From Octopus vulgaris (Eukaryota): a stretch of 64,000 nucleotides of DNA. Both the position numbers and the translations under genes were made by a program. Each line of letters starts with the position of its first letter. Position 1 is the first letter of the stretch. This document shows positions 3,532 through 64,000 of this stretch, piece after piece. The stretch covers positions 57,350,001 to 57,414,000 of the forward strand of contig OX597819.1 in NCBI GenBank assembly GCA_951406725.2. The letters are read 5' to 3'. Under the pieces are notes generated by a model that ran no database searches, was not told the origin of the DNA, and saw nothing but the letters and a program-made list of their open reading frames with translations.

Positions 3532-3732
3532 GTATGTATATATATATAAGGTAGAAAGTATGGTGAGTGATTACACGTGGTTTAATATATACGGAAAGAA
3601 ATAAGATGAAAAACACAGATTTGTTTTACAAGACTAAACAATATATTGGAATAATAATAGTAAAAGTATTATACAGTGTGGTAGAAAACAAATTCTTTTC
3701 TTCCTACATAATAACCGGGAAGAAATATCTTA

Positions 3733-6889: not shown

Positions 6890-7080
6890 GCAGCGGGCAC
6901 GCCGGAAAACATGCTAAGCATCATTTCGTTAGTCTCTAAGTTCAGAGATCAAATTCCATCGAGATGGATTTTGCCTTTAATCCTTTCTGAATCGATGAAA
7001 TAAGTACCCATCAAGCTCTGTAGTCGATATAATAGACTGGCCTCTGCGCCCAATTTCAGAGCCTGTGCCTATAATACAAA
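6890..7080 (+). mobile_element. Degenerate SINE (same family as 12123)
   Basis: GCACGCCGG..ATGCTAAGC..GTTCAGAGATCAAATTCC..GCCTTTAATCCTTTC..TCGATGAAATAAGTACC. Confidence 0.65.
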
Positions 7081-9577: not shown

Positions 9578-10789
9578 TCAAGTCATCTCACAAGTTCTGT
9601 CAGAATTTTGAATAAAGAAAACAAGTGATCAAATGTTATATTTAATTGAAATTTAATCATCAGTGTACTTTCACCGATTATCTATGACTTCCAATCCATC
9701 TATTTACAAGCTTTTTAATCCCATCAATCTAAAACTCTTTTGGTTTCAAAGCGAAGGACTCTGAAATGTCAGTTTCGACCTCCTCCTACCTTGCGAAATT
9801 TATTTCTCCCAAGTGATTCTGTAAACTACGAAACAAATGGTAGTCTGAAGGAGCAAGGTCGGAAAAATAAGGTGGATGAGGAATTTTTTCCCAACCAAGC
9901 TCTTCCATCTTCTGTGATGTGATCTTTGCAGTGTGGCGTCGCGCATTGTCCTGTTGAAAAGCTTGATTCAAACGCTCTAATTGCTGACAGTAGACTTGAG
10001 CATTGCTTGTTGCATTAGGTGGTAACAATTTAAAGTGAATTACTCATTTGCAATTCCACTAGATAGAGAGAACCATTTTCCCCATGAAGTTCCCTTCTCG
10101 GTTGTGGTTGAGCCTTTTTCTTTTTACCAAGTCACTGTTTACGACGCTTAACATTTCGATAGATCCATTTTTCGTCACCAGTCACAAGTCTATCCAATAA
10201 GGGTGAAATGAGTTCGCGAGAATGGAGAGAAGAACAGATGTCAACTCGGAATTTTTGGTTGCTTTCGGACATTTCATGAGGCACCATTTTCTAATTTTAG
10301 AAACCTTTCCAAGTTGTTGAAGATGACGATGAACAGTTGTATGGGATGAACTAAGCTTTATTGCTAATTCTTCAACTGATAATGCAGGATTTTCTTCAAG
10401 TAATGCCTCAAGTAATGCCTCAACTGGACATCATGTTCGATCTTCATCTTCAAGGCTGAAATCTCCAATCCTGAATTTTGCAAACCATCTTCTGCGAGTT
10501 CTTTCGTTCAAGCATTCTTTCTGAGTGCATATTTTGAGTCGCTTCGGCAGCAGAGTTTCTTTTTTTTTCCTTCTACTCATTAAGCATTATGTGCCTTAAA
10601 TGCTCTTTCGATACTCCCATGTTAGAAAGGGTTTCAATCAAAGAAATGTTAATTCTATTTTTCTGCAAGATAATAATTAATTAGCTTAAATGTACACAAA
10701 TACATAAAAATAACCTTTAATTCCATTAGACATTCTAAAATTCTATTTTTAAAAAGGTAAAATCGGACAGAACTTATGGGATGTGTTGA
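9578..10789 (-). mobile_element. Full-length but inactivated mariner (DD34D) transposon
   Basis: Minus-strand start MGVSKEHLRHIML (ATG at 10620), then RRWFAKFRIGDFSLED, VTGDEKWIY, QDNARRH and HPPYFSDLAPSDYHLF. Imperfect TIRs CATCTCACAAGTTCTGTC (9584) and GACAGAACTTATGGGATG (10766-10783). Contains stops and frameshifts. Confidence 0.9.
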
Positions 10790-11319
10790 TGAAAACACAA
10801 TTTAAAAATTTTTAACATTTTCAATTACCTTTAATTTTTTCTATCAAAGGTTAGTAACTACTTTTTATCATGACTGACTTAGTATTTCTTCACATTTGCT
10901 CATGACATATATGCATATCATATCTTCCTATAAAAAAAAAATATTTTCGTTTTCACTTTCATATCAGGTTTCCAAGATTCGTGATGGGAATTTTGCGTGT
11001 TGAAACAAAATGTGTTGTGTCTTGGGAGAGTCATTGTACCAATACTAGTGACACATGTACTGGTTCAATTCCACTCTTTTATTATTAGTCAATTGGTTAA
11101 GTATCCAGCCAACTGGTCGATTGTTTAACTTGGTTAAACAGTAAGTCGTTTGTTTTGCTTTTGCTTGTCAAGCTCTTTCGTTCCTATTTGCAACCTTCTC
11201 CGTGACTTCTCTCTTAGACCCTTACTAAGGCAGCATTTGTCTCTCTGAGACCTTCTTGCATGTGTGTGCGTATTTATGTATTTATGGATGCACGTATCTA
11301 TACATACAAAGATACATAA

Positions 11320-11698
11320 CATCGACCGCAGTGTTTCACTGTACTTAATTTATCGACTCCGAAAGGATGAAAGGTAATGTCGACCTCGACAGAATTTGAA
11401 CTCAGAACAGCGTCGGGCGAAATACCGATATGCATGTCGTTCAGCGTGCTACCGATCCCGCCAATTTAGAGCAAGTGATTTACATAATGGTTTCAAATTT
11501 TGCCACAACGGCAACCATTTTGAGAGGGGATGCGTCGATCACAGCGACATCAGTGTTTTACTGATACTTAATTTATCGAGCCCGAAAGGATAAAAGACCA
11601 AGTCGTGCTTGACGGAATTCGAACTCAGAACGTAGCAACGGGTGAAATACTGATAAACGTTTCGTCCAGCGTGCTCACGAATCTGCCAACTCGCCGCC
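11320..11698 (-). mobile_element. Two SINE copies, minus orientation
   Basis: TTTATCGACTCCGAAAGGATGAAAGG and GAATTTGAACTCAGAAC are the reverse complement of the SINE consensus at 12123. Confidence 0.75.
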
Positions 11699-11886
11699 AT
11701 TCAACTGATTTCCATAATGGCACAAAAAATATCATATCTATCATTTAATGCTATTCAATGGACATTCAAAATATTTGAGAAGTCACAATGCAAATATAAG
11801 AGGACAATTTAGCCATCAATGATTACCGGTTCGCACACATTAGGTGCAAATATTTTCTAAATACGTTTATTATAGATACGAGTAAA

Positions 11887-12520
11887 AGCGGCGAGATGGC
11901 AGAAACGTTTGCATGCTAGTCGAAATGATTAGCGGTATTTCGCCCGTCGCTACGTTCTCAGTTCAAATTCAGCTGAGGTCGACTTCGCCTTTCATTATTT
12001 TCTAGTCGATAAATTAAGGAGCAATGAAACACTGGGGTCGATGTAATCGACTAGTCCCTTCCTCATTCCAGGCCTTGTACCTTTAGTAAAAAGGATTATT
12101 ATTCATGAACGTCACTTTGAAAAGGCGGCGAGTTGGCAGAAACGTTAGCACGCCGGGCGAAATGCGTAGCCGTATTTCGTCTGCCGTTAAGTTCTAAGTT
12201 CAAATTCCGCCGAGGTCGACTTTGCTTTTCATTCTTTAGGGGTCGATAAATTAAGTACCATTTACGCACTGAGGTCGATGTAATCGACTTAATCCGTTTG
12301 TCTGTCCTTGTTTGTCCCCTCTGTGTTTAGCCCATTGTGGGTAGTAAAGAAATAGGTATTTCGTCTGTCTTCATGTTCTGAGTTCAAATTCTACCGAGGT
12401 CGATTTTGCCTTTCATTCTTTCGGGGTCGATAAATCCTGTACCAGCTGCGTACTGAGGTCGATAGAATCGACTGGCCTCCTCTCCCCAAATTTCGGGCCT
12501 TGTGCCTAGAGGAGAGAAGA
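11887..12520 (+). mobile_element. Monomeric SINE (11887-12100) plus dimeric SINE (12123-12520)
   Basis: tRNA head GGCGGCGAGTTGGCAGAA with B box GTTCAAATTCC. The central GCCTTTCATCCTTTCGGGGTCGATAAA..GTACC block (MetaSINE-like, from memory) is duplicated in the dimer. Confidence 0.85.
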
Positions 12521-17405: not shown

Positions 17406-17497
17406 ATCTTATAAGAAAGGGCTAAAGAAGATATTTCTAAAGCCAATATACTGATATTGGCTTTAGAAATATCTTCTTTAGCCCTTTCTTATAAGAT
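17406..17497. repeat. Perfect palindrome: 44-bp arms, 4-nt loop (ACTG)
   Basis: ATCTTATAAGAAAGGGCTAAAGAAGATATTTCTAAAGCCAATAT and its exact reverse complement at 17454-17497. Confidence 0.95.
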
Positions 17498-18098
17498 GTT
17501 CATATTTCAACCGTAAAGGTTTTTTTTAATATACTGCCACGCTTCCTGATGGAATTCTTTTCTGTAGAGAAAAGGGCTTCATCCTATATTTGTTAGTAAT
17601 ATTTATTTATATATATACATTATATGCATATCAGGTTTATATCAACATATTATATGTGTACATATACATACAATTATAGATATATATTTATGCGCGCATA
17701 GAATGAGTGAAAAATGAATAGGTGAGCATGTATCTTTGTTAATTTGCATAATATTTTGACGAATCACCTCCCGAAATTATAGTTGTTATATAAAGGTATT
17801 TTCTTGTGTGTAAAAGTAATCTGTACTTCGGTTGGGGAAACTTATTGCATAAAATAACGATATAGTAAGCGGGTATCAGCATATTTATTCTGAAGATAAA
17901 GCAGGTGGAGAATTGCACAAAGGACATGAAAATATAGATTATTCATTGAAAGATTACTTCTAGAATACAATTCATCAAAATTTCCCGAATTCAATGAAGC
18001 TCACGAATACAAACTTACACCCGCTCACACAGACGGCCACGCACACTCAAACACATGTATGCATATATATTTATATGTACATATATGTGCATACATAC

Positions 18099-18186: not shown

Positions 18187-18340
18187 AGTAGCAGCGTGGT
18201 AAGTAGCTTCCTTGCCGACCACATGCTTCCGGGTTCAGTCCCACTGCATGGCACCTAGGGCAAGTGTCTTCTACTATAGCCTCGAGCCGAGCAAAGCTTT
18301 GTGAGTGGATTTGGTAGACGGAAACTGAAAGAAGCCTGTC

Positions 18341-18401
<61 letters not shown>

Positions 18402-18463
18402 TATATTTATACATATATACTACAGGCTCCTTTCAGTTTCCGTCTACCAAATCCACTCACACG
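18185..18463 (+). mobile_element. CORE-like SINE 5' half, (TA)n, then an inverted fragment of the same SINE
   Basis: GGTTCAGTCCCACTGC..CTAGGGCAAGTGTCTT. GTGAGTGGATTTGGTAGACGGAAACTGAAAG (18301-18331) recurs inverted at 18430-18460. Confidence 0.8.
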
Positions 18464-20074: not shown

Positions 20075-20272
20075 TCGCACACGCATACATATGCCTATAT
20101 ATATAAAATGCATACATATATAGTTGAAATTTACAAAAAAAAAGAAGACGGGCGTGTAAACAACAAACGGATGTATTAGTTTATATGCATATATATACAT
20201 ATGTATATATACATATATATACATATATATAAATTGATCAAAATAAAATAAAAACATGATGCGAAGGATTCA

Positions 20273-20350
20273 GCGGTACATATGTTTCGGGCCTTTATTA
20301 GACAGATTTATAACAATGCATAATGTATGTCTGTGGCCTTCTTCAGCCGC
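20273..20350 (-). ncRNA. Type I hammerhead ribozyme
   Basis: Exact reverse complement of 23130-23207. Confidence 0.8.
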
Positions 20351-23129
20351 GCACAACAGCTTCCACAAGGACATGTGTTACATCAAAAATTCTTGGTTGG
20401 GGATGCAAATCCTCTCATTCGCGTACGACATAATGCGGCAGCAGCATAGAATTGAAGCGTCCATCTCTTTTTTCTCTCAATGTAGAATGAGGAAAATTGG
20501 ATGTTGAGGTAATGTAAATAAATAAATACATATATAGGCGTGAAGATGGAGGGGCGAGAATTCGGGACGAGGGATAAAAGATGTATAAAAGTGTAAGTAT
20601 AGAAAAATATAAAAATGTAGAGCATAAAGATATAAAGAGTTGTAAGGAGATGTAAAGGGGGTATAAAGAATATAAAGAAATATAAAGAAATATAAATAAA
20701 TGTAAAGGCATAAGGTTATAAAGTAAAAATAGAAATAGAAATAAAAGTAAAAAAACATGATAAAAACATGATAAAAATGTAAAAGAACGTAAAGATAAGG
20801 GATGTATAGAGGTTACGGACCAAGCATGGTGGTCAGGAGATTGATAAGATTTAGTTGTAGAATTGTCAGTAAATCAACAGTTTCGTCTGGGGACCTAATG
20901 TGTTGTAAATCAGAGCTGATGAGCATTTAATCTGGTTCCTTGAATTAAATGGACTTCTAGTACATACATATCATCATGGATACATACACCCATATACACG
21001 CGTACATATACGCCTCCAAGCCTATAAGCATACACACGCACTCGCGTGTAAACATGTACATAAACACACACGCACCCACACGCACGCGCGTACACATACA
21101 TACATACAACAGAATATCCGCATATATACACGGACACTATACGCGTACACACTCACATGTACATACGCGCGCCCATCCCTACATACACACACGTATATGC
21201 CCACGCCTCTAGGTCTAGATATAAGATATTAAAGGATGTATATAAGAACGTATGTAAAAAATCACGTACTCATGTCTATACGTGCACGCACACACGGCTG
21301 TGTGTCCGTATGTGCGTGCACATATACACTTATATACACACGCAGAGACACACGTGCATATGGGTATAGCTATAAGATATCGAAATATGTATGTACATAT
21401 ATGCGCATGCATATGTATGTATGCGTATACACACGTACGCGGACGCTCGTATAGTCAAAAAGTGGATCCATAGGTAAGTAAATAAACATATATAGAGGTG
21501 TAAAGCGATAAGTTAGGGGTAAGAATGAGGGTAAGGGTAAAAATTAGAAATAAAAAATACAGTATAAAATAAGAAATACAATGTAATATTTAGAAATGAA
21601 ATATAAGAATTATAAAAATTATAAGAGTTAAGGTAAGGGATGAAAATAAAAATGAGAATAAATGGAAGTAGAATAAAAGTAAAAATAAAAATAAATGGAA
21701 GTAGGATAAAAGTAAAAATAAAAGTAAAAATAAAAATAAAATAAAATAAGATAAAAATATAATTTGGTAAAGTTTAACCCTACTTCCATTTATTTTTATT
21801 TTTACCTTTATTCTACTTCCATTTATTCTCATTTTTATTTTCATCCCTTACCTTAACTCTTATAATTTTTATAATTCTTATATTTCATTTCTAAATATTA
21901 CATTATATTTCTTATTTTATACTGTATTTTTATTTCTAATTTTTACCCTTACCCTCATTCTTACCCCTAACTTATCGCTTTACACCTCTATATATGTTTA
22001 TTTACTTACCTATGGATCCACTTTTTGACTATACGAGCGTCCGCGTACGTGTGTATACGCATACATACATATGCACGCGCATATATGTACATACATATTT
22101 CGATATCTTATAGCTATACCCATATGCACGTGTGTCTCTGCGTGTGTATATAAGTGTATATGTGCACGCACATACGGACACACAGCCGTGTGTGCGTGCA
22201 CGTATAGACATGAGTACGTGATTTTTTACATACGTTCTTATATACATCGTTTAATATCTTATATCTAGACCTAGAGGCGTGGGCATATACGTGTGTGTAT
22301 GTAGGGATGGGCGCGCGTATGTACATGTGAGTGTGTACATATATGTCCGTGTATACATGCGGATATTCTGTTGTATGTATGTATGTGTACGCGCGTGCGT
22401 GTGGGTGCGTGTGTGTTTATGTACATGTTTACACGCGAGTGCGTGTGTATGCTTATAGGCTTGGACGTATATATACGCGTGTATATGGGTGTATGTATCC
22501 ATGATGATATGTATGTACTAGAAGTCCATTTAATTCAAGGAACCAGATTAAATGCTCATCAGCTCTGATTTACAACACATTAGGTCCCCCAGACGAAACT
22601 GTTGATTTACTGACAATTCTACAACTAAATCTTATCAATCTCCTGACCACCATATTTGGTCCGTAACCTCTATACATCCCTTATCTTTACGTTCTTTTAC
22701 ATTTTTATCATGTTTTTATCATGTTTTTTTACTTTTATTTCTATTTCTATTTTTACTTTATAACCTTATGCCTTTACATTTATTTATATTTCTTTATATT
22801 TCTTTATATTCTTTATACCCCCTTTACATCTCCTTACAACTCTTTATATCTTTATGCTCTACATTTTTATATTTTTCTATACTTACACTTTTATACATTT
22901 TTTTATCCCTCGTCCCGAATTCTCGCCCCTCCAACTTCACGCCTATATATGTATTTATTTATTTACATTACCTCAACATCCAATTTTCCTCATTCTACAT
23001 TAAGAGAAGAAAGAGATGGACGCTTCAATTCTATGCTGCTGCCGCATTATGTCGTGCACGAATGAGAGGATTTGCATCCCCAACCAAGAATTTTTGATGT
23101 AACACATGTCCTTGTGGAAGCTGTTGTGC

Positions 23130-23207
23130 GCGGCTGAAGAAGGCCACAGACATACATTATGCATTGTTATAAATCTGTCTAATAAAGGCCCGAAACATAT
23201 GTACCGC
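23130..23207 (+). ncRNA. Type I hammerhead ribozyme
   Basis: Stem I GCGG/CCGC, CTGAAGA 23134-23140, stem II GGCC/GGCC with inner ACAGA/TCTGT, GAAA 23192-23195, palindromic stem III ACATATGT, GTA site (cleavage after 23203). Distal stem I GAAG/CTTC. Confidence 0.82.
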
Positions 23208-23319
23208 TGAATCCTTCGCATCATGTTTTTATTTCATTTTGATCAATTTACTCCACCACCTACACCACCAAACGGTATACACAGGTGCTTATAATTATCA
23301 AGTACTCACCCCGAATTTC

Positions 23320-29340: not shown

Positions 29341-29779
29341 CTATACATTAATAGGTCATTAAAATATTATTTTTGTTACTGTTGTTGTCATTCTCGTCGT
29401 CGTTGTTGTTATTTCCATATTACTCTTGGAACTCTCGATTGTCAAAGGTCTCACAGGGTCTCTTTCGACGAGACTTAACACCCAAGTCCCAATCTCAAAA
29501 TCGTTACCATCCCCAGTAGAGCGGGTTTTGAGCATGTTCTTGTGTTAATTCCAATTTCTTTAACGTACGTCACGAACCAAACTGTTTGTGCTCCGGCGAG
29601 AAGCTTGCAAAAGGGTTAGCAAGCCGGAATAAATGCATAATGGCATTTTGTCGATATTTATGCTTTGAGTTCAAATTTCGCCGAGGTCATCTTTCCCCTT
29701 CATCAATTCTGAGTCGAGAAAATAAGTGTAAGTTGAACAGTGAAGTCGATGTAATCGATTTACCCTCTCCGCTTGTGCC

Positions 29780-37667: not shown

Positions 37668-39841
37668 CACTGGTTTACAAAGATTTCTTTTTTTCTTTGC
37701 TCTGAGGCAAGGATGTGAACAGGTGTTTTTTTTTTACTAATTTTGATGTGGGGGATTCACGTTTCTGAACAGTTTTGTTCTATCACTTCCAGCTTTTTGC
37801 TTTCACACATCTCATTTTAATTATACTGCATATAAATTCAAAATACAATGTGTTTATTTCATCTGATACAAAGGCATATTACGAAAAAAGAACAAAATAG
37901 ATACAGAGCATTGATGGAACTAAATTACTTGGATAATAGAATACGCACAAATCAAAGTGAGTTTTTTGGACGATCTTGTGTACTTTGCCTCCGGAATATC
38001 ACGCAAGAACATCCAGCAAAATTCCCCATCATACTGGGGCTCCACTTGCCTTGGTAGTTACTCTCAATCTTAGTAATATCTTGGTGGATCCTTTCTCCAT
38101 GCTCATCACTCAATGCTCCGAGCTTCGGAGGGAAGAAATTGGGGTGGGATTGAAGAAAGTGAATTTTGAGGGACATTCGGCATCTCATATCCTCATAAGA
38201 CTGGAACAACTTCTAGATACACTCTTGGTAATCTAGTACCCGTGTCTTACCAAGGAAGCCATGGCAGACTGACTTCAATGCTTCTCATGCTCTCAGTCCT
38301 TTTATGGTAAGAAGATTCTCAGCGTGTTTATCCTTCAACACTTCTGCAATCTGAAGCCCGACGAAGATGCCCTCTTTGAAATTATCAGAACTCAGAGCTG
38401 GGAACATAGTGCAGAAGTGTTGGAAGTCAGCACCATCTTTGTCCATGGTCTTCACGAAGTTCTTCATTAAACCAAGCTGGATATGAAGAGGAGGAAGAAG
38501 TACGTTGTTCATGTCAACCAAAAGATTTTCTTGGACATTGTGTTCACCAGGCAAGAAAGTGCGCTTAGATCCCCAGTTCATCTGCTTGTAGTGTTTGGGC
38601 CCATCCCTGCTGTCCCAGAGACAGAGAAAGCAACAGTACTTTGTGAAGCCAGCTTGCATACCCATAAGGAGCCCAATGACATTGAGGTTCCTGTATTGAC
38701 TCCACTGGTATTGGTTGTATTTGACGGCTTCCAAAAGGAGCTCCATATTGTTAGATGGCTCCTTCAGATGAACTGAGTAGACCGAGATTGTTGGGATATT
38801 TATTCCAATTGTACAAGAGCACAGCCTTCAGAACTCGCTTGGAAGAGTCTATGAAAAGACGCTAATCTGAGGAATTGTGTGGGAAACCAAGGAAGGCTAA
38901 CAAGCCAGAAACATTAGTGCAGTAGCACAACCTGTTTACCATGTCGAAGAATGAGCACATTCCAGGTTCATTGTCCTGAAACTGGTGATCCTTACATGTG
39001 CTTTGACCAGGTTCCACTGCTTAAGCCGGGATGCCAGGTGCTCTGACTGTTGCTTAGATAAATACAAACCACGAGCAAGGTCATTGAGGTCTTCCTGCAT
39101 GATCCAGTGGGGCTCTTTGACACTTGTTCCTAAATAAACAGAGACATTGCCTTCAGAAGAGATCATCGTGGCAGAATCTTATTCTGAGAGCATTTCTTTA
39201 TCCTTATTTGATGGGGTGTAAGAACAGGGAGATCATCTGTGTGAGGAACAGGTCTCATAGCTGAGGGAAGTTTTGGATATTTGACCTTTTATCTAGAAGA
39301 AGCATTGAAACCGGATATATTTGTTAGACAATAAAGCAATCATCTACATGGCTTCCTGGTTCACTCGGGACAGCAAAATTTAAGGCTGCTTTCTTGCTGT
39401 TAAACCATGCTGTTTATCCATTGTAGCAGGGTTTTCAACAGATGTGTGATGCCCAGGATGTGTCCTGATCTCCAATTTTACAATCAAAATATCGAAAGTA
39501 AGCAGTTCTCAGGAGGGAAATAATTGTTCGGCGCTGTGCAACTTTCGTAAAATCCCCACACACACACAAAAATAAATTTGCCTTGTATATACATCCTCGG
39601 TGTTTTGACGTGCCTGAAGCCCTTGAAGAGATATATTTCATATGTATCACACAAATCTGGCAAACAAAATAAACGTTGATCATATATATGGTTACGGAGA
39701 TTATCGCAAAATCATAATAATATATATCACAAAAAAGTAGAGGTGATGAGTGAAAACTGGTTTCGTATCTGATATCAGCACCCTATAATAAGGCTACAAC
39801 AACACTTTTTACGTTTGCTTCAATTTCTCTCTAAACCTGTG
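37668..39841 (-). mobile_element. Full-length, inactivated Chapaev3-like (CMC) DNA transposon
   Basis: Motifs KIGDQDTSWASHIC, LNDLARGLYLSKQQSEHLASRLKQWNL, GFTKYCCFLCLWDSR, LPPLHIQLGLMKNFVK, SLKIHFLQSH..SDEHGERIHQDI..YQGKW. Termini CACTGGTTTA / TAAACCTGTG with a 3-bp TAA duplication on both sides. Confidence 0.88.
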
Positions 39842-41011: not shown

Positions 41012-41279
41012 TGTGCGTGTGTGTGTGTGTGTGTGATTGTGTGTGTGTGCTCGCGCGTGTGAGTGTGTGCGTGTGTGTGTGCATACGGAGATAAAGTCCT
41101 TAAATTTTTGTTCCGAATTAGAGGGAAATATGCTGGTACTATGCGTTGTGTTGATTCACTAGAAATAGTTACATCCTAGCAATTCATAACAAGTTGATCG
41201 CAAAAAAAAAAAGAAACGAAAAGACAGACAAATATATCATGAAAAACAATATTTTAGTCCTAATATTTCAAATTTGCTA

Positions 41280-41865
41280 CGGCGGCCAGCTGGCAGGAAC
41301 TTTAGCACGCCGGGCAAAATGCTTAGCAGTATTTCGTCTGTCGCTACGTTCTGAGTTCAAATTCCGCCGAGGTCGACTTTGCATTTCATCCTTTCGGGGT
41401 CGATTAAATAAGTACCGGTTACGCACTGGGGTCGATGTAATCAACTTAATCCGTTTGTCTGTCCTTGTTTGTCTCCTCTGTGTGTAGCCCATTGTGGGTA
41501 GTAAAGAAATAGGTATTTCGTCTGTCTTTACGTTCTGAGTTCAAATTCCGTCGAGGTCGACTTTGTCTTTCATCCTTTCGGGGTCGATAAATTAAGTACC
41601 AGTTGTGTACTGGGCGCGATCTAATCGACTGGCCCTCTACCCTAAAATTTAGGGCCTTGTGCCTAGCTAGAGCAGAAAAGAATCGCTGTGACACCGGGCA
41701 AAGCTAAGCTGCATTTCGTCCGTGTTTAAATTCTTAGTTCAATTGCCGCCGAGGACGACTTTGCATTTCAGCTGTCAGTAAAAAAAGTACCAAATTCTTT
41801 ACAGCTGTCGACGTAATTGACTTATCCATTTCTGCGAAATCGCTGGCCTTGTGCTCGAATTCGAA
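41280..41865 (+). mobile_element. Dimeric SINE (41280-41680) plus degenerate monomer
   Basis: Colinear with 12123-12520. Confidence 0.85.
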
Positions 41866-42330
41866 ACCAACATTTTTCAGATTTTCTGTGAAAACATCTT
41901 TTAGGAAAACACAGATTGTAGTGACTTGCACATAGTGACTTTTAGGTTTTACTTGCTTCCCTCATTGGATCGGTTTTAATATTTTAGTTGAGCAATTCAA
42001 CGTCAGTACTTTCTTAGATGTCTGTACTTACTATAAGGGTCTCTTTTATCGAGTTTTTTTTTTATTTGCACCGATATGTTACACTGGTGTAAACACACCA
42101 GAACCTATTGTCAAATTGTGGGGGCGACAAACCCAAACTCAAATAAACAATCATGCACACATAGACACATTCCCAAATATCTGTATGTATATATATAACA
42201 CGGGTCTACCGAATACACATACGTTGCGTTAATCCGAACGGCATTACAATAGAAGATAGTTACCAAGCTGCTGCACAGACCAATATTCAAGAAAAATAAT
42301 ATTTTAGTCGTAATATTTTTAATTTTCTAC

Positions 42331-42470
42331 AGCGGTGAGCTGGTAGAATCGTCAGCACGCCGGGCGAAATGCTTAGCGGCATTTCATCCGTCTTTACGTT
42401 CTGAGTTCAAATGGCTCCGAGGTCGACTTTGCTTTTCATCTTTTCGGCTATCGGTAGAATAAGTGTTAAT
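42331..42470 (+). mobile_element. SINE 5' part
   Basis: AGCGGTGAGCTGGTAGAATCG..GTTCTGAGTTCAAAT..GAGGTCGACTTTGC. Confidence 0.75.
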
Positions 42471-43924
42471 TGAGTATATACCATATACATAAGGTTTCTA
42501 AGAATATAGGAATCATGAGGAAAACATAGAATCATCAGAAATTACAGGTATTTTCCACATTTTTCATCGTTTCTTTACTGCTGCTGTGTTTCACAATTGT
42601 GCTGAAGGCTCATTTACTTAGTCATATACCATTGGCTAATTTCAAATTATAACACGAGTAACATAATAGTATTATAACAGAGCACACAAGGAACTGCAAT
42701 TGGATGCCGTTTTACTTTTGTTTTTTTTCTTTTTAAGCAAGCCATATTTATGAAATTCTCCACTCATTCCTAAAGCTACATTGCCTCATATGCTTTTAAC
42801 GATATTAGTATCATCTTAGATGTGCTCGTATGTTCCTTTGTGTCAGGCCGTCCTGGGTGTGCCGACTTATGGACGCATCCCAGCTTTCATTTTATTTCTA
42901 AATCAGTCCTGAGTGGCATAGTTTAACAAGAGAAGTGTGTAATTTTAGGTCAGTTTGGCTGCTCTCTCTAGCAAGTGGAACGCCCGTATTCAGATACTTT
43001 TCCTTTACAAAACATTGCAGGTGGCAAAGGGCAATGTTTGTGGTTATCATCGGTCACTATGTCAAAAACAAGCTATTCTTTAAAATCATATCTAGCTATT
43101 TTCAATAACGTATTCGTCACTGCTAGAAAATATCTGTAAATGAACTTGGCTTTTCAATTGAACTATTCAAAATAAGGATTGATTTAAAACCGACTATTTT
43201 ATGAATCTTGTGATAAATATTGATTTTAGCAGTTTAGTTTTATTGATCGCTGAAAAATTCTAGTTTAAACTGTATGACTTGATTTTTTGAACAAATGGTT
43301 CACTAAACATTGTTACTAATACAGCTGCGTTCTACCATAAAAAGTCAAATCTAGCCTATTCACTTTTTTCGAATGATTCAGATATTGTAAGCGTGGTACG
43401 CTATTATTTTACTACAAGATTTCAATATACATTCATATACTCATGTATGTGATTATACATGATGGCTGTTTTTACAAGCATGTAACGTTTTTTAAAGTAA
43501 ATATACGAAAATACCATCGATCGTCACAAATGGTATTAGTTTGGGAGACGAACGAAAGTAAATATAGTGATTTACGATGAGACTCGAACAAACCGCAAAT
43601 ATATACTTTTGCTTACTTTGTATATTTACCGGCTTTAGTTATTGAACTACGTTTTTACTGATTTTGAAACTGATTTCATTTTATCCCTAGCTCGTATATT
43701 GGTTTGAGATACGTTCCTTTTACTTTTGTTTTCTTTTTTTTTTTGGCTTATTGCCTACATCATAACATGAGATTCAACTTATGTTCTTTAATTCTTTATC
43801 TTTACATTCACTATTAAATCCACAAATATGATGATTCATCTAATATATTACTTTACGAAGTTATTTTCTTTCAAGAATATAATATATCCTTATTAAACTA
43901 TGCACATGACGCTACAATACAAGC

Positions 43925-45089: not shown

Positions 45090-45695
45090 AACCATGCTAC
45101 GAAGTGATAATAACCATGCTACGATTCTATATGCTATTATGGCCATTCCTTATATATTTGAACGTATATTATATAGTCTATTGACTATCTTTTCTGTCTC
45201 ACTTGACCGCTGGTAGCGGAATAGTTTTCTAGAGTTTTTTGCTACCCTAAAATTTAATAATTAATGATTTTTTCGCTAATTTTGAAATTAAATCGGCAGT
45301 TTATATTTGCTGCTGAGAAAACCGCGCGAGTGTGGTGGATTTTGAAAAGTTATAGCATATAGACTCGTCGCATGGTTATTATCACTTCGTGACGATATGG
45401 TAGTCCTTGGTTTTCTGCTGAAGAGGCACGCCAGTTGTAAATAAATTAAATATATTTACTAAAGATTGCTGAAACTATGCATTGTCCAGAAAGGAGAGGG
45501 TGAACGTTTTTATTTCTCTATTAGTGGTTTGGAGTTTAACTGCTCTTTCTAGTGAGTCGAATGTCCTATTATGGCCATTCCTTATATATTTGAATGTATA
45601 TTATATAGTCTATTGACTATCTATTCCTTCTAACTTGACCGCTGGTAGCGGAGAATTTTTCTAGAATTTTTGCTACCCTAAAATTTATTAATTAA
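45090..45695 (+). mobile_element. Retrozyme-like element: about 1.3 tandem units (period 432 bp) with a short inverted 5' segment, ending in (TA)n
   Basis: 45135-45265 is repeated at 45567-45695. 45099-45138 is the reverse complement of about 45352-45390. Homologous to the 58-kb monomer. Confidence 0.8.
45412..45492 (+). ncRNA. Type I hammerhead ribozyme
   Basis: Stem I TTTCTG/CAGAAA, CTGAAGA 45418-45424, stem II GGCA/TGCT with inner GTAAATA/TATTTAC, GAAA 45471-45474, stem III ACTATGCATTGT, GTC site (cleavage after 45486). Confidence 0.85.
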
Positions 45696-45753
45696 TATAT
45701 ATATATATATGTATATATATATGTATACATGCATATATATATATGTATATATG

Positions 45754-46961: not shown

Positions 46962-48629
46962 GGCCTATTGCGCACTGTGAAAGCATTCAGCGATGACATC
47001 GGGATGGAGTTTGGGCTTGAGAAGTGTGCCAAGGCCACTTTCCAGAAAGGGAAAGGGAAGACCACAAATTCAGTCGTGTTAGATGTTGGCACAATCATAA
47101 GAGAGATTGAGCAAGAACAAACATACTAATATTTAGGGATAAATGAAGGCTCTGGTATTCAGCATGCAAGCATGAAAGAGAAGATCAGGAAGGAATGTTA
47201 TAGGAGAGTTCGTGCAGTCCTGAAATCTGAACTAAATGCACGTAACAAGGTGTTAGCTATAAATTCCTTAGCAGTTCCAGTTGTTATTTATAGCTACAAT
47301 GTGTTGAACTGGAATATGAGTGAAGTAAAGAATATATACAGGAAAATACGCAAGCTGCTGAGTTGTAATCGGATGCACCACACAAAGGCAGACGTAGATC
47401 GCCTTTACCTTCCTAGAGCCCAAGGAGGTCGAGGCCTGATCCAATTTGATCTAGCTTACAAAACAACCACAATTGGACTGGCCAAATATCTTGAAATAAC
47501 GAATCACTGGATGCTAAAGCTCGTGGAAAATCACGAGAGACGAAAAAAGCTTCATTCTATCATAAAGGAAAGCAAAACACTTGCTATTGATCTCGTACAG
47601 GATACCCAAACTGAACAACCCGGCAACTATTGTTGCAAAGAAGGTGAAAATAATGGCAACGAAAAAAGCGCACGAGCAATTGGCTGATAGGTGGGAGGAG
47701 AAACCTCTGCACGGCAAATATGTGGCCCGTAGCAAACAAGCTGATGTTGACCAGAAGCAAACCCATCAGTGGCTACGGAGCTCAGGGCTAAAAGCAGAGA
47801 GCGAAGGTTTCATCCTGGCTGCTCAAGATCAAAGCCTATTAACCCGGAACTACCAGGCCAATGTAATGAAAAATGGAGCAGACCCAAAATCCCGATTCTG
47901 CAATGACATGATTGAAACAGTGGACCACCTAATCTCTGGATGTAAAGTCTTAGCACCAGTGGAGTATAAATTAAGACATGACAGAGTTGGCCAATATCTA
48001 CACTGGCTAATAAGTCGGCATTACAATATCAAAACTGCCGACAAGTGGTATAATCACCACCCTGAAGCTGTAACTGAAGGAGAAAATGTAACGATTCTGT
48101 GGGACTTTCCAGTACATACAGACCGAACCATCAAAGCCAATAAACCAGATATTGTTGTGAAAGACAAAAACAATAAAGTTTGCTTATTGATCGACATGAG
48201 CATCCCCTGTGATCATAATATCTCAGCGAAAGAGTTTGACAAGCTCAGAAAATATAAAGACCTGCTCATTGAAATTGAGTAAATGTGGCATCTCAAGGCG
48301 GTTACAATACCAGTGATCGTAGGAGCACTAGGAATGATCAAGAAGGGAACCGAAAATTATATGAGAATGATCCCTGGCTTACCATCCCTGCAAGAAGTGC
48401 AAAAGATTGTCTTAACTGGTACATCACACGTATTGAGAAGAGCATTGTCGCTGTGAGAGCTGTTACTGCCCATGTATTTTAATTTAACGCTAAAAAAAAT
48501 TTAAAAAATGAACGAACTATTGAGTTTGGTTTAATGGCCTACCAATGTATACTATGAGTTACTTTGCCCTAGGAGTCGGGAAGACGCTCGGCAAGAAATG
48601 GAAGCAAATTTGAAAAAGAAGAAAAAAAA
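46961..48629 (+). mobile_element. 5'-truncated Dong/R4-clade LINE (RT end, CCHC knuckle, restriction-like endonuclease) in (TAA)n
   Basis: FSDDIGMEFGLEKCA, Y*YLG, RLYLPRAQGGRGL, RFC..ETVDHLISGC..RHD, LWDFPVHTDRTIKANKPDIV..D, VGALG..VQKIVLTGTSHVLRRALS. (TAA)n on both flanks. Contains stops and a frameshift. Confidence 0.92.
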
Positions 48630-56559: not shown

Positions 56560-57698
56560 GTAAGTACGCCAATATACTTAAAACTTTAATGTTTTTCGCC
56601 ATTTTATATTTCTATAAATTTGGCGCATGCGCTTTGTCTGTTTTCGATTTTGTCAACTACACTGTACGGTAGAGTCAGCTGTACACTATTTAATAAAAAC
56701 AGCCACATGATGCAATTCACACTGCCAAAAATTTGGAAAGGACATAAATTGCTAGGTATTCGCGCGAGAAGGTCCATCACGAACATTTGAGTGTTTGGGT
56801 GTCAATCTGAGGACAGTGCAATCTCAGGACATGTACCGATTTGTGATAAAAATTAAACATCCAGTCAACATCGTGGCCTTTGGATTGATCACAAATGATG
56901 GCAAAGTTATGCCTCCATTTATCTTCTCACACGGCCTCGGACACAACACGGAGGTCTACATCAAGTGCCTGCAGGAAGTAGTGCTGCCATGGGTCAAGAG
57001 GGCAACTGCTGGAACACTTTATGTCTGGGAACGAGACTCTGCACCATTCCTCACAAACACGAGAACCCAGTCATGGCTATCAGACAATTTCTACGCCGAA
57101 ATCACCCCTAACATCTGGCCTAACACCCCAGACTCCAATCACTTTGATTATTACATATGGGGTGCAGTTGAGCGAGAGACCAACAGCATTCATTGTAACA
57201 ACAAAGAAGAACTGAAGGCAAGAATTATCGCAGCATTCACCAACATAATCAAGGAGAAACAATCCAGAAGAGTTGCAGGAGATTCCGAAGTCACCTGGAA
57301 TCCGTGGTTGAAGGCAATGACGATTTTATTGAGTAAATTTAGTCCTTAGTATTTCTAGATAATTTTATGTAATTTTGGTAAACTTCAGTCAGAAATAACC
57401 AGGCGTTGCAATGGGCGTAATAATTGATGAATACATCGAGTGTTACTCTGGAGATGCAAAAGATATAATGGAGATGAGAATGATAATGTGAAGTTGGTTG
57501 GAGCTACTTTTAAGTGACGAAACAGAATAGTGAAGTCTGTAAACGATTCAAGATATTTGGCCTCTACACGTTCCGTATCGATATGGATGATGAGTGGATA
57601 GCCATGGGCATAAAAAATAAGTTGCCAAATAAGTTGTCAGTGTTATTTTCTTTTTTGTGTGTGTAATTTAAACGACAGTTCATTCATCTCACTCTGTG
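56560..57698 (+). mobile_element. Internally deleted DD37D (maT)-like Tc1/mariner transposon
   Basis: ORF 56795-57349 KHPVNIVAFG...MPPFIF...WERDSAP...WPNTPDSNHFDYYIWG. The D-to-D spacing is 36, consistent with DD37D lacking one P of WPPN. The 3' end is interrupted by a 232-bp insert. Confidence 0.8.
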
Positions 57699-57756: not shown

Positions 57757-57813
<57 letters not shown>

Positions 57814-58034
57814 TCAATATAGGGTGGCAAAAAAAATTTTGTAGAATTTTTTTGCCACCAGCGGCCTAGTGGGAAAAAATTAAATAGTCATAGACCATTT
57901 ATAAGTTCAACATCACAATCAAGGAACGGCCATAATAGGCCATTCACCCACTAGAAATAACAGCCAAAGCTTTAACCGCAAAATAACATTAATTCCGTAA
58001 ACAAGGAGAAAATTAAAAAAACATTTACCCTGTA

Positions 58035-58141
58035 ATTTCTTATACGATGCACCGTTTCATCTACTATTTAATGGTAAACTAACCTGATTAAATTAAATCA
58101 AGCCAATCTTCCATAGACCCTTAGATTCCTCAGTAAGAAAT
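58035..58141 (-). ncRNA. Type I hammerhead ribozyme
   Basis: Reverse complement of 58656-58762 with two substitutions inside stem II. Confidence 0.87.
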
Positions 58142-58655
58142 AGCCAGAACGGAACGGATATTTTCACGAGGCATTTCCGTCCCTGCCTCGGCAATATCTG
58201 ACCTAAAATTTTCAAATCATCGCACTCGCGCCAAATTTATCGGCAGCAAATAAATATAAGCCGCCGATTCCATTACGGAATCAACCAGAAAATTCATAAT
58301 TAATCAATATAGGGTGGCAATGTTATTTTGCGGTTAAAGCTTTGGCTGTTATTTCTAGTGGGTGAATGGCCTATTATGGCCGTTCCTTGATTGTGATGTT
58401 GAACTTATAAATGGTCTATGACTATTTAATTTTTCCCACTAGGCCGCTGGCGGCAAAAAATTCTACAAAATTTTTTTTGCCACCCTATATTGATTAATTA
58501 TGAATTTTCTGGTTGATTCCGTAATGGAATCGGCGGCTTATATTTATTTGCTGCCGATAAATTTGGCGCGAGTGCGATGATTTGAAAATTTTAGGTCAGA
58601 TATTGCCGAGGCAGGGACGGAAATGCCTCGTGAAAATATCTGTTCCGTTCTGGCT

Positions 58656-58762
58656 ATTTCTTACTGAGGAATCTAAGGGCCTATGGAAGATTGGCTTGAT
58701 TTAATTTAATCAGGTTAGTTTACCATTAAACAGTAGATGAAACGGTGCATCGTATAAGAAAT
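58656..58762 (+). ncRNA. Type I hammerhead ribozyme with long stem II
   Basis: Stem I ATTTCTTA/TAAGAAAT (8 bp), CTGAGGA 58664-58670, stem II ATCTA/TAGAT, GAAA 58739-58742, stem III ACGGTGCATCGT, GTA site (cleavage after 58754). Confidence 0.9.
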
Positions 58763-59142
58763 TACAGGGTAAATGTTTTTTTAATTTTCTCCTGGTTTAC
58801 GGAATTAATGTTATTTTGCGGTTAAAGCTTTGGCTGTTATTTCTAGTGGGTGAATGGCCTATTATGGCCGTTCCTTGATTGTGATGTTGAACTTATAAAT
58901 GGTCTATGACTATTTAATTTTTTCCCACTAGGCCGCTGGTGGCAAAAAAATTCTACAAAATTTTTGCCACCCTATATTGATTAATTATGAATTTTCTGGT
59001 TGATTCCGTAATGGAATCGGCGGCTTATATTTATTTGCTGCCGATAAATTTGGCGCGAGTGCGATGATTTGAAAATTTTAGGTCAGATATTGCCGAGGCA
59101 GGGACGGAAATGCCTCGTGAAAATATCTGTTCCGTTCTGTCT

Positions 59143-59249
59143 ATTTCTTACTGAGGAATCTAAGGGCCTATGGAAGATTGGCTTGATTTAATTTAATCAG
59201 GTTAGTTTACCATTAAACAGTAGATGAAACGGTGCATCGTATAAGAAAT
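59143..59249 (+). ncRNA. Type I hammerhead ribozyme (second tandem copy)
   Basis: Same as 58656-58762. Cleavage after 59241, 487 nt downstream of the first site. Confidence 0.9.
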
Positions 59250-59367
59250 TACAGGGTAAATGTTTTTTTAATTTTCTCCTGGTTTACGGAATTAATGTTA
59301 TTTTGCGGTTAAAGCTTTGGCTGTTATTTCTAGTGGGTGAATGGCCTATTATGGCCGTTCCTTGATT

Positions 59368-59418
<51 letters not shown>

Positions 59419-59422
<4 letters not shown>

Positions 59423-60017
59423 CTAATGTAGGATAACATTTCTTTTTCGGGAAAAAATTTTTTATCAATGGCCAGCATATTAAAAAATACCTTTAAAGTT
59501 TTAATTTATAAATAATTTACAAAATAAGTGCAAAAGAAAAATTCCAATGCCAAATATACCGAAAAAAAGACAAAAATTGTCAATAACCATTATAATTTAT
59601 GCGTCTCGAAACAAACCGATAGAAATTTCTAAAAAAATCATTTATTACCGTATTGGTCCCAATTTCGGGGTTAATTCATAAGAATTTTCCCCTCTTCAGC
59701 GATAAAAACGTGAGATATAAGTGAAATACTTACTCATACCCATGGAAAAAGCAAGTACTAAGTCACGAGCAGACCTAAGTACCCCAAATATATCCAAAAT
59801 AGAAAATCTTCGACACATCTCGAGACACGTGTGATTCGAACTAGAAACTTTCACACAGTGAGAGAATCCGGAAGTGAACACTATTAAGTTTATAACTAAT
59901 GTATGATCAAAAATTTTTTCGGGAAAAATTTTTTATCAATGGCCAGCATATCAAAAAATACCTTTAAAGGTTAAATTTATAAATAATTTACAAAATAAGG
60001 GCAAGAGAAAAATTCCA
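59419..60017 (-). mobile_element. Retrozyme/pLTR-like element: about 1.27 units, period 473 bp, (TA)n on both flanks
   Basis: 59419-59546 is repeated at 59892-60017, with an HHR in between. Confidence 0.85.
59645..59705 (-). ncRNA. Type I hammerhead ribozyme
   Basis: Minus TTATCG-CTGAAGA-GGGG aa AATTC ttat GAATT aa CCCC-GAAA-TTGGGACCAA-TA-CGGTAA, running into AATAAA. Confidence 0.88.
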
Positions 60018-60077
60018 TATATATACATATACATATACATACATACATATATATATACCTTCATCTTCGTGGAGATT

Positions 60078-60610: not shown

Positions 60611-61674
60611 TGCCCTACCATATGTAGGGGACGCAAGTATGTTTATGGCGCGTCAAAAGCTCTTCAAAATCATTTTCTGAAATTCAGCGTTAATTTGCTG
60701 ATATTCGACAAAGTAGTAAGCTTAACGTAGCGAGAGCTTCAATGGCTATTGATTGTTGTTCGCTGAGAGAATGATTTGACTTCAGTCAGAAATAACCAGG
60801 CGTTGCAATGGGCGTAATAATTGATGAATACATCGAGTGTTACTCTGGAGATGCAAAAGATATAATGGAGATGAGAATGATAATGTGGAGTTGGTTGAAG
60901 CTACTTTTAAGTGACGAAACAGAATAGTGAAGTCTGTAAACGATTCAAGATATTTGGCCTCTACACGTTCCGTATCGATATGGATGATGAGTGGATAGCC
61001 ATGGGCATAAGAAAAAACACTAGAAAGATTAACATAAAAGAAGGTGTGAATAAAATCGGTTTCCTCTAAATATATTATTCGATAAACTGCTGGAGGTTTG
61101 AGGTAGCAGTAAAGATAGTAAGCGTATCTTGTGATGGTAAAGCCTTGAGCTTCTTTAAGGGTGTAAAGGTAATGTTTGTAAGTGTGAATGATATTGAGCG
61201 TGTGTGAGATGAGTGAGAGATATATAGAGAGGGATAATTATTAGGGGTAAGGAGTTCTACATAAGTGCTGGCATGTTTGAGAAAAAAATCGTTGTAAAAT
61301 TATTCAGTGTAGATTTGGAATGGATAGACAGAGGATTCATAGATGGAGATAGAAAATAGGTATAACAATTCTTTGCTAAAATACTTACTAGAATTTTAAG
61401 TATCTCTTCCCCAAAATAAAAACTAGATTTATAACAAAAAAATTGTGATTAACATAAGAAATATATATTGTTGTGATAAATAATTGTTTCTAATTTAGAC
61501 ATTAAACCTGATAATTAGGACAAAGTTTTAATTAAAGAAATTAGTATTTGACCACTAGGAGGAGTAAAATCCCTCGGTTGGATTTCAGCTTGAGTTCGTA
61601 CAGAGTCCGAACGAACACAGTCATTTTGATCGACTGAGTTCAGTTAATTCACTACCATAATTCTTTCGTTCTAT

Positions 61675-61880
61675 CTACCATAGGCACAAGGCCTAAAATT
61701 ATAGGTGAGGGTAGTCTAGTCGATTACATTGAACCCAGCATTTAACTCGTACTTATTTTATCAAACCTGAATCGATTAAAAGCAAAGCTGACTCCAGCGG
61801 AATTTTGAACTCAGTGTGTAAAGCCGAAAGAAATGCCGTTAAGAAGTTTGTCCAGCGTGCTAATGATTCTGCTAAGTCGC
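61675..61880 (-). mobile_element. Degenerate SINE (12123 family)
   Basis: TAGGCACAAGGCC..GTCGATTACAT..GAATTTTGAACTCAG..GTGCTAATGATTCTGC. Confidence 0.7.
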
Positions 61881-64000
61881 TGATTTTCCATATGAGAAAT
61901 AGTAAAATCAAAAACAGAAAAAGTAATATGACATAAACATACAAACGCCCAGTAGAAACGAAAGCAATCTAACTTAAAGTGAAATCCATACATTTCGGTG
62001 AGAGAACAGATAAGCATGTTAGTCAGAAACTTAATTCAGAAACAAACGCTGTATAGTCACACCCAGAGATAAAATAGAATTAATACAAAATATGAACATA
62101 ATAAAAAATACACTCTTCATCAACAAACTTGTAAAGAAACAACATATTACCATTATAATTTAATAATTTCTTTGCAAATATGAAGCTTTGTTATAATTTG
62201 TATTAATTCTGTTAGATTAGTCTTACAACTGGAATGCTTTCCGACCATTCCGTCAAGCATTTCGAAGAAGATAGTACTGTACATTGTATAACACAATAGA
62301 AATCTAAACTTGATTGTAAAAGAAAAGAAAGAAAAAATTAGAAGATTTTGGAAATTAGAAAAATTAGATTTTAGAATACTTAAAAACAGTTGATTAATCA
62401 TTAACATATGAATAGCAAAATACTCCACAAAATTTGACAGAAAATAGCGCATATTTTGTGGGTTCTTTTAGAAAAAATCTCAAGTTAAAGATAAACAATC
62501 ACCAAATTCTTGTACTAAATCATCATTAACGCAACAATATTCCAATAGTTTCTGTATTTGGTGATGTATAGTATCATATACACAAAAATTCGAATTGAAT
62601 AGAAATTTACCCTATAGTTGAAGATGGAAAATAAAAACTTAGCATCAAATTTTTAGTACCTCTTACAGAAAAGGGACATAAATTAAGTTCTGGAGACACT
62701 TCTGTTTTATTACTTTAATTTTTTTTTTGTCAGAGTGGTAACATCTACAAATAGGTTTCTATCGTAGGAAAAATCATCAAAATCATGGTTAACTCGGACA
62801 TTTCAGTCTAATTGATATATTTAGTTAGCATCGGCATTGTTACAAACAATTTTGGCAGTAACAATTGGTACTACTGACTGGAATACACGAACATGAAAAA
62901 TAAATGACGTGGATTTAGTTAGTTACTATCATCCTGTTTTTATTTACAAATCGCGCAGACAAATGTCTATAGAAGGTAAATGATGACACAGATAGCAATT
63001 TATGTAGAATCTCACACTCAAACAGCTCCAACTGACTAAGATTGCGGCATACTTTCGCACAAGAGTAGCATAAATTTGAGACAAACAATGCATATGTGTG
63101 TGTAAGAATGGGCGTGCGTGTATAGGTGCAAAAATGCAAAGATGAGGTTCAATATAAATCAAATTGCACCTCACCACTATGCTAATTGAATGAAAATACA
63201 AAACGCATTAGAGTGAAAAGAAAGCTTTTTGATCAATGGCTCCATTATATATGGGAACAAATGCGATGGATTCTTGCATATGCAATATATAGAGTTAAAA
63301 CACTTTAAATAACTGGCATTAATCTCAATTAGCAGAAAAATTCTCTCTCAGTATGCTTAAAATCTGAAAGCAATGAGGAAGAGAGCTTGCCAAATAAAAT
63401 ACATTCATGAGCAGTTTTGGAAAATATAACTAAAGATGTGATGGAAGTAATCTGTGCTGGCTAAAGCAATTCAAGGTTTATTGTTGGATTATGGAAAGAC
63501 CAGCGAAGGTTCCACGCTAATGTGCCTGGTTACAATCAATCGCAGTCTAAAAGCATTTAAAATATTAGTATTTGGTTCACGATTCATAGAAAATTATTGG
63601 AACGTCAATGTACTTGGTATGTTCGATTGGATCTTAAGAAGTGCCTTTTGCAGTAATAGTTTGAACTCAAGAACAAATTTAATTGTATTCCAGATAAGTA
63701 TTTGTCTTGTAGACATAGGCGTTCTCGATTTTCGAATTGGTTTGTAAAAAAATTCCTATATCAAAATATTTTTATAATATACTCCAAGAATTACTTTAAC
63801 AAAAACAGAATTACATAAAAGAACAAATGGAAGAGTGAACTGTCTTGTATAAGGTGTTGCTTACAAATTCAAAGTTGAATATAAAGAAACACGACGTTTC
63901 GATATTCCCACCAGCAACGAATTAGCGGACTCTGTCGCTTTAAGTATCATTCGCATGCCACAAAAAAGACCTAGACATATGCATTTCCCAAATGTCATAT

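Follow-up and report, generated by a model that had tools for sequence, protein, structure and literature searches.

The stretch of DNA analysed here (the window, 64 kb) is AT-rich, microsatellite-dense animal DNA. On its minus strand, at positions 59420-60017, lies a genuine non-coding jumping-DNA insertion of approximately 600 bases with a self-cutting RNA motif. It is referred to as element C (473-bp period); the other elements are labelled A (432-bp period), B (487-bp period) and E (17.4-17.6 kb). The features of C and its surroundings are as follows.

59420..60017, minus strand: element C, non-coding insertion of 598 nt, 1.27 units
59891..60017, minus strand: 5' copy of the terminal redundancy of C, a pseudo-LTR-like partial unit
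59418..59546, minus strand: 3' copy of the terminal redundancy; its last TATA is common to the target tract (4-nt microhomology)
59639..59711, minus strand: predicted type I hammerhead with long stem II and near-palindromic stem III
59641..59646, minus strand: AATAAA, overlapping stem I and starting 4 nt after the cut
59713..59793, minus strand: predicted long hairpin just 5' of the ribozyme, -23.3 kcal/mol
59600..59833, minus strand: predicted long-range duplex of approximately 30 bp (about 59801-59833 with 59600-59630), -26.7 kcal/mol
59432..59466, minus strand: 3'-terminal A/U hairpin, 12-14 nt before the end, weakened (z +0.14)
59905..59937, minus strand: copy of the A/U hairpin in the 5' repeat, better paired (z -2.15)
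59371..59421, no strand: target tract (AT)25.5, common to C and the 3' end of the 487-bp array
60018..60058, no strand: 5' flank of C, a degenerate (TA)/(TACA)n tract

When the terminal repeats of C (59418-59546 and 59891-60017) were compared, they were found to be 90.7% identical over 129 columns, and a global alignment of 128 columns contained 8 substitutions and 4 gap columns (approximately 6% substitutions). Their offset, 473 at the 3' end, falls to 471 at the 5' end, giving a unit of 471-473 nt. This bears out the terminal redundancy approximately 473 bp apart given in the preliminary description of this DNA, for repeats that are not identical. Both boundaries of C lie in (TA)n tracts, and one full copy only was present in the window. 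The GC content of C was 0.31, its longest ATG frames were 40 aa on the minus strand and 44 aa on the plus strand, and the 344 nt between the two repeats contained no ORF. The 487-bp array ends at 59372 (plus strand) and C ends at approximately 59420 (minus strand), 3'-to-3' and convergent across (AT)25.5, which confirms the tail-to-tail arrangement described earlier for C and the array at 58 kb across one (TA)n. A 9-mer at 59835-59843 (minus strand) is B-box-like and is absent from A and B. Pol III transcription from this 9-mer was rejected because T-runs lie downstream; C was likewise rejected as a Pol III/tRNA-derived SINE, there being 17 runs of T4+ on the B-box strand and no A box seen by eye. 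A sigma-70 promoter scan was set aside as inapplicable to eukaryotic DNA.

The minus-strand hammerhead with a GGGG/CCCC stem II and an AUA site was confirmed. Its core has C3 at 59699, G12 (the start of GAAA) at 59666 and H17 at 59651, and it contains the conserved type I sequences CUGANGA, GAAA and NUH with G10.1-C11.1. All three helices are foldable in context, with stem I open. Stem I has 6 bp followed by 5 bp more past a U-U mismatch, stem II is extended by 5 bp beyond GGGG/CCCC, and stem III closes a 4-nt loop with 4 bp or, alternatively, a 2-nt loop with 5 bp. Cleavage is predicted after A59651, in the AUA triplet. AUA is a natural cleavage triplet, though a weaker one. In 200 block-wise dinucleotide shuffles of the 64-kb window a looser descriptor gave 0.005 matches per shuffled window, and a motif as good as that of C occurred in 0 of 200. 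These findings show that the ribozyme of C is far beyond chance.

In the folding calculations, local or as a circle, the active fold cost 0.8 kcal/mol more than the MFE. By itself stem III was unfolded, and it self-dimerised at -12.3 kcal/mol; its monomer pairing probability in the circle ensemble was approximately 0.1. As modelled, the ribozyme looks competent as a monomer or dimer, and it would process multimers of the family. Rfam gave no hammerhead match on the window at the gathering score and none among the 18 matches to E 10, and near C its only matches were of microsatellite-driven miRNA type; the hammerhead call therefore rests on our own descriptor and the folding. The ribozyme pattern of C had 0 matches in bacterial and archaeal genomes, and nothing matched in a phage collection. 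The portions of PMC12602865 and PMC3088659 consulted here contained nothing pertinent to the mechanism or to AUA sites. The ribozyme had been described as running directly into AATAAA, and the hexamer does start 4 nt after the cut, but its frequency is at chance level (0.82 expected per 598 nt) and it was rejected as a poly(A) signal.

The 598-nt linear RNA of the ribozyme strand had a folding z of -2.9 (0 of 100 shuffles as good), and C as a circle had a z of -4.5 or -2.7 depending on the repeat copy used (0 of 40 shuffles each). Nine of ten control stretches had |z| of approximately 1 or less, and one had a z of -3.5. The predicted duplex of approximately 30 bp encloses the long hairpin and the ribozyme, and in the 487 and 432 families a hairpin is predicted at the same place upstream of the ribozyme. 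For the A/U hairpin, 5 of 200 shuffles were as good as the copy in the 5' repeat and 101 of 200 as good as the 3' copy. The 3'-terminal hairpin of C is a candidate priming or recognition signal. When 56 non-simple flanks of 53 TA tracts were folded, the end of C was not singled out.

A relative of C was found approximately 42 kb away.

17406..17600, plus strand: element E, the 3'-most ~145 nt of the C type plus a 5' fold-back inversion, in TA-rich DNA

The 3' part of C aligned with 17452-17600 at 67% identity over 154 columns (z 8.2, 0 of 2000 shuffles), and this was the best non-self score among 3114 window segments. E is 5'-truncated to approximately 145 nt and has the 3' hairpin and the 3' end position of C. 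In this hairpin 6 of 16 pairs were changed on both sides in a three-sequence alignment, a weak indication. The fold-back arms of E are identical (44/44) yet E diverges by 33% from C, which suggests a separate, younger subfamily rather than a decayed C.

The two further families of the window are these.

45099..45696, plus strand: family A, 1.3 units with a 39-bp 5' inverted piece and a hammerhead with G.U at 10.1-11.1
57806..59372, no single strand: family B, the neighbour of C, an inverted 1.05-unit copy and a 2.16-unit array, three hammerheads, young

A and B were homologous over their full length (global z 18, local z 37, 0 of 500 shuffles). The sizes 432, 473 and 487 had been taken as a hint of a common size constraint; since A and B are homologous along their length they form one lineage, so that the three sizes are only two data points, and published units range from 51 to 972 bp, with approximately 500 bp in crickets, so that the sizes do not demonstrate a special constraint. 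C did not align significantly with either of them: in the comparison of B with C the global alignment had a z of 2.3 (7 of 500 shuffles), with 52 of 500 shuffles for A against C, and an A/B profile (nhmmer) found no match in C at E<50. The statement that C has no similarity to the 487-bp unit outside the core thus holds for alignable sequence, but the architecture is common to both. That C is a separate family inserted in the same TA tract is supported, its sequence being distinct from the 432 and 487 families.

The distance from the cut to the 3' end was 231 nt in C, 234-237 in B and 210 in A, and all three have a hairpin 5' of the ribozyme and another 12-19 nt before the 3' end. When a covariance model was built from the A/B 3' ends only, its best matches outside A/B were both repeat ends of C, aligned in register over their full length, though not significantly (E 0.31 and 0.42). 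The common layout of A/B and C is suggestive, but not conclusive, of distant kinship or of the same partner enzyme. Apart from its training set and a further B copy, no copy was picked up by a model of all seven 3' ends. In addition, weak matches to the A/B profile (E 0.03 and 13) were seen at 42490-42990, with a hammerhead-core-like motif at 42538 (minus strand); this is possibly a very old relative of A/B, or chance.

The copies of B differ by 2/490 and 4/515 substitutions. Because the repeats of C differ by 8/128, C is probably an older resident of the TA tract than B, and most simply B entered the TA flank of C after C had inserted. The two parts of B meet head-to-head at 58319/58320, each with its 3' end in a TA tract, and the right end is 104 nt short; this layout looks as if both nicked strands had primed on a template of several units. 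At least two complete consecutive ribozyme units were found in the neighbour B only, and not in C.

The 3' ends look fixed and the 5' ends variable. Four of the five 3' ends (A, left B, C and E) lie just past the hairpin, and the right B end (59372) stops 104 nt earlier. A test for circular permutation of the copy ends had been suggested, and in the window no permutation of the 3' ends was seen: C and E end at the same place, A and the left B copy likewise have a common 3' end, and one of five (59372) differs. At the four junctions examined 2-4 nt were common with the TA tract, and the 4-nt TA overlap of C is available at 2.3% of positions in its unit. Counted within one unit, the 5' breakpoints lay 132 nt (A), 125-127 nt (C), approximately 145-149 nt (E) and 25 and 183 nt (B) upstream of the common 3' end, and 0 of 5 were at the ribozyme cut. 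Inverted 5' pieces were found in A, B and E. Between their terminal repeats A and C show 5 transitions and 13 transversions, an excess of transversions that had been considered as evidence for two different templates; p was 0.0007 against young duplications and 0.086 against 11 other repeat pairs (84/168 transitions), and the argument was dropped after these wider controls.

C is a further family of an already described class: the class has been published, as have its size range and the circle model. Animal non-LTR retrozymes were defined by Cervera & de la Pena in 2020 (PMC7229834), with PLEs named as likely partners, and Li, Clavereau & Pollet (10.64898/2026.07.22.740005) relate retrozymes to PLE pLTRs in Xenopus, with consensus lengths of 51-972 bp, both as far as the consulted parts of these papers go. 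The metazoan non-LTR retrozymes described there are, like C, non-coding, below 50% GC and built of units, each of a few hundred bp and containing one type I hammerhead, that are joined head-to-tail, with structured RNA and no LTR features. C consists of a non-coding head-to-tail unit, in partial tandem (1.27 units), with one type I hammerhead, and its RNA is of low GC and highly self-paired (GC 0.31, z -2.7 to -4.5, with 1 of 10 controls similar). On its sequence, C falls within the structural definition of a non-LTR retrozyme monomer copy. The preprint of Li, Clavereau & Pollet, in the parts seen, counts monomer copies within retrozyme families and calls 'active' those with a minimum of two successive units whose ribozymes are complete; C, at 1.27 units, is a 'monomer' and not 'active' under this definition, which bears on activity and not on membership. 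At 471-473 nt the unit exceeds the range reported for invertebrate retrozymes (170-400 nt) but falls within the preprint's 51-972 bp. Mussel retrozyme ribozymes are reported, as is seen in C, to be without the usual loop 1-loop 2 nucleotides. Neither (TA)n targeting nor a 3' end fixed behind a hairpin was found described for metazoan retrozymes in the portions of this literature consulted.

C was also compared with PLEs that have hammerheads in their pLTRs (Neptune, Poseidon/Penelope), in the sections of PMC4209133, PMC8557442 and PMC11167929 drawn on here. They resemble C in the pseudo-LTR partial tandem, the 5' truncation, the AT-rich or microsatellite targets and a type I hammerhead upstream of a defined internal end, and they resemble its relatives in the 5' inverted pieces. 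Unlike them, C has no RT/GIY-YIG ORF, and its single hammerhead lies outside the duplicated part; nor is its ribozyme of the minimal metazoan PLE type, since it has a 4-bp stem III and no extra base after A9. Short head-to-tail insertions with pLTRs are described in PMC8557442 for the non-autonomous Chlamys elements (MRC1), and a (TA)n preference for the Naiads; in the same sections, unlike C, canonical hammerheads are mostly absent from the Chlamys and Naiad clades, and Naiads are reported to have long been inactive in cephalopods. The cricket satellite pDo500 (PMC2837043) is, from the part of that paper used, a repeat of approximately 500 bp with a self-cleaving hammerhead, likened to C by description only; it is a high-copy satellite (approximately 5% of one genome) rather than a dispersed insertion of 1.27 units. 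For PLEs the consulted part of PMC8557442 describes non-autonomous elements arranged head-to-tail as well as partial tandems, 5' inverted copies and a bias to microsatellites, and the partial tandems, 5' inversions and (TA)n targets of the window match these descriptions. Traits of non-autonomous PLEs were found as the partial tandem and the microsatellite/AT-rich target in C, the fold-back in E and the inversions in A and B. C probably behaves like a non-autonomous PLE, and retrozymes of its class probably borrow Penelope-like enzymes.

No RT and GIY-YIG ORF lies between the repeats of C, which is therefore not an autonomous PLE. When 126 of the 200 open frames of the window (those of higher complexity) were searched with Pfam, 0 of 126 matched a GIY-YIG or PLE RT family. 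A broken frame at 60991-61395 (minus strand), picked by eye as a PLE endonuclease C-terminus, was rejected (two marginal matches, E ~6e-4, over short stretches). Since no PLE ORF was found in the window, we infer the partner enzyme: C would be mobilised in trans by a PLE RT/endonuclease. For Octopus vulgaris 31 recently active Penelope-like families are reported in PMC13282606, where the word 'ribozyme' does not occur in the part available. In the main texts consulted on hammerheads or retrozymes in octopus or cephalopods no such family was found described. Hammerhead repeats of the kind of C are widespread in animals, and one more family is unsurprising.

On the most likely reading C is an old copy, partly tandem and 5'-truncated, of a non-autonomous Penelope-like element (a non-LTR retrozyme), inserted by TPRT at (TA)n with internal priming, and we hold it with good though not full confidence. 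The repeats, the ribozyme, the (TA)n flanks, the 3' end in common with a relative and the absence of an ORF were seen directly in C. A source array elsewhere would have been transcribed into RNA of more than unit length, to which the RT/GIY-YIG protein of an autonomous PLE would bind in trans, probably at the 3' hairpin. This protein would nick (TA)n and prime internally, 12-19 nt past the hairpin, helped by 2-4 nt of AU microhomology; the RT would then copy across the intact ribozyme site and stop after 598 nt, and the 487-bp family would later have inserted in the TA tract adjoining C. In PMC11167929, as far as the consulted part goes, one PLE in vitro is described as priming internally in a stem-loop downstream of the ribozyme, at AT-rich DNA, from unprocessed RNA and independently of ribozyme cleavage.

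A self-cleaved linear monomer primed at the observed site would give 231 nt at most and no intact ribozyme. C reaches 367 nt past the cut, which means that copying crossed a ribozyme site that was either uncleaved or re-ligated in the template. The 1.27-unit length had been read as pointing to a circular template; it shows only this crossing, and a circle is one of three templates (circle, uncleaved tandem transcript or template jump) that all fit. We lean slightly towards an uncleaved multimer. The alternative of rolling-circle copying, which differs only in the template, holds that a circRNA of 471-473 nt arose by double self-cleavage and ligation and was copied by the RT once round plus 127 nt. 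It is a reasonable possibility, rated somewhat below even. It agrees with the more-than-unit length across an intact ribozyme, with the predicted structure of the C circle and with the changes between the repeats, which were 3:3 when polarised by eye with E, as would be expected had the two copies been identical when they arose. In coral, mussel and axolotl such retrozyme circles have been documented (PMC7229834), and circles were proposed as templates for more-than-unit copies in 2014 (PMC4209133), to the extent that these papers were covered. However, an uncleaved homogeneous multimer predicts the same picture. The C locus has one ribozyme, so that this copy cannot itself release a unit-length circle, and a C array with two ribozymes is absent from the window. 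In addition, ribozyme mutants left insertion unchanged in the one PLE tested in the consulted part of PMC11167929, and cleavage in vitro is given for only 1 of 9 Xenopus dimers in the part of 10.64898/2026.07.22.740005 that was seen.

The positions of the 5' ends bear on a second alternative, that a promoter in the unit starts the RNA approximately 130-150 nt upstream of the priming site, on which view A and C would be full copies of the form repeat-unique-repeat, and E, with priming in the first repeat, would be the shortest product. Three of the five 5' breakpoints (A, C and E) fall within 22 nt, the inversions of A and E lie exactly at those breakpoints, and PLE pLTRs contain the start site (PMC8557442, in the sections used). 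The clustering, however, was spotted after the fact and has p=0.058, the B breakpoints are at 25 and 183 nt, A belongs to a different lineage from C and E, and promoter evidence is nil; this fixed start is unlikely.

More specific, and quite unlikely, is the proposal that C is a footprint left in DNA by a line of ribozyme circles, approximately 470 nt long, highly structured and competent as monomers, which PLE reverse transcriptase would have copied round and past a structure-defined priming site, consisting of the 3' hairpin and a short AU tail and kept by covariation across unalignable families. If true, a cis-acting mobilisation signal would have been defined for the first time in animal retrozymes, and rolling-circle target-primed reverse transcription would have direct evidence in genomic DNA; RNA-to-RNA replication of the circles may be a further possibility within it.

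That C is the terminal fragment (pLTR and 3' UTR) of an ordinary coding PLE is very unlikely. Retrozymes and pLTRs are homologous (10.64898/2026.07.22.740005, in the part seen), and PLE insertions are mostly 5'-truncated, which is exactly the form of E; but the 344 nt between the repeats of C hold no ORF where a coding PLE would need kilobases, and with only 344 nt there the template unit itself is approximately 472 nt. It is extremely improbable that C arose at the DNA level, through local tandem duplication or an expansion like that of satellites, or that AT-rich DNA here folds so by chance, despite the AT-rich, microsatellite-dense window and the local amplification of tandem arrays invoked in the consulted part of 10.64898/2026.07.22.740005, given the precise (TA)n boundaries on both sides of C, the relative with the same 3' end 42 kb away and a ribozyme far above chance.

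The window contains two lineages (A/B and C/E) with a common (TA)n target, a 3' hairpin and a similar distance from ribozyme to end. The modest, practical value of C lies in its ends, as fixed 3' and variable or clustered 5' ends bear on circles versus uncleaved read-through RNA and on RT recognition.

Other features were seen in the window. A 3-kb fold-back palindrome (97%) at 20230-23250 carries in each arm a minimal PLE-type hammerhead (23134, plus strand, and 20346, minus strand) with an extra base after the core and a short palindromic stem III; its left end adjoins a TA tract, and no PLE ORF was detected in it with Pfam. More short palindromes around TA tracts lie at 3585-3823 and 18300-18461. 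A 239-bp direct repeat (98%) at 57382-57620 and 60779-61017, 3397 bp apart, brackets the B/C cluster. The 197-aa frame at 56756-57346 (plus strand) is Tc1/mariner transposase-like by eye, with no Pfam match and two unnamed homologues, and a mariner-type transposase remnant is present at 9789-10430 (minus strand; Transposase_1, E 3e-7; HTH domain). At 47130-48282 (plus strand) there is the frameshifted 3' part of a non-LTR retrotransposon with a weak zf-RVT match and 335 homologues, followed by (AAT)n tracts; the fragment at 47.6-48.3 kb is 57-66% identical to named homologues from a hydrozoan, a shrimp and echinoderms. At 38285-39782 (minus strand), disrupted frames containing Cys-rich motifs had no Pfam match and are probably a transposon remnant. 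A dispersed SINE-like family has many copies, at 569-767, 6897-7071, 11316-12509, 29589-29770, 41224-42473 and 61676-61887.
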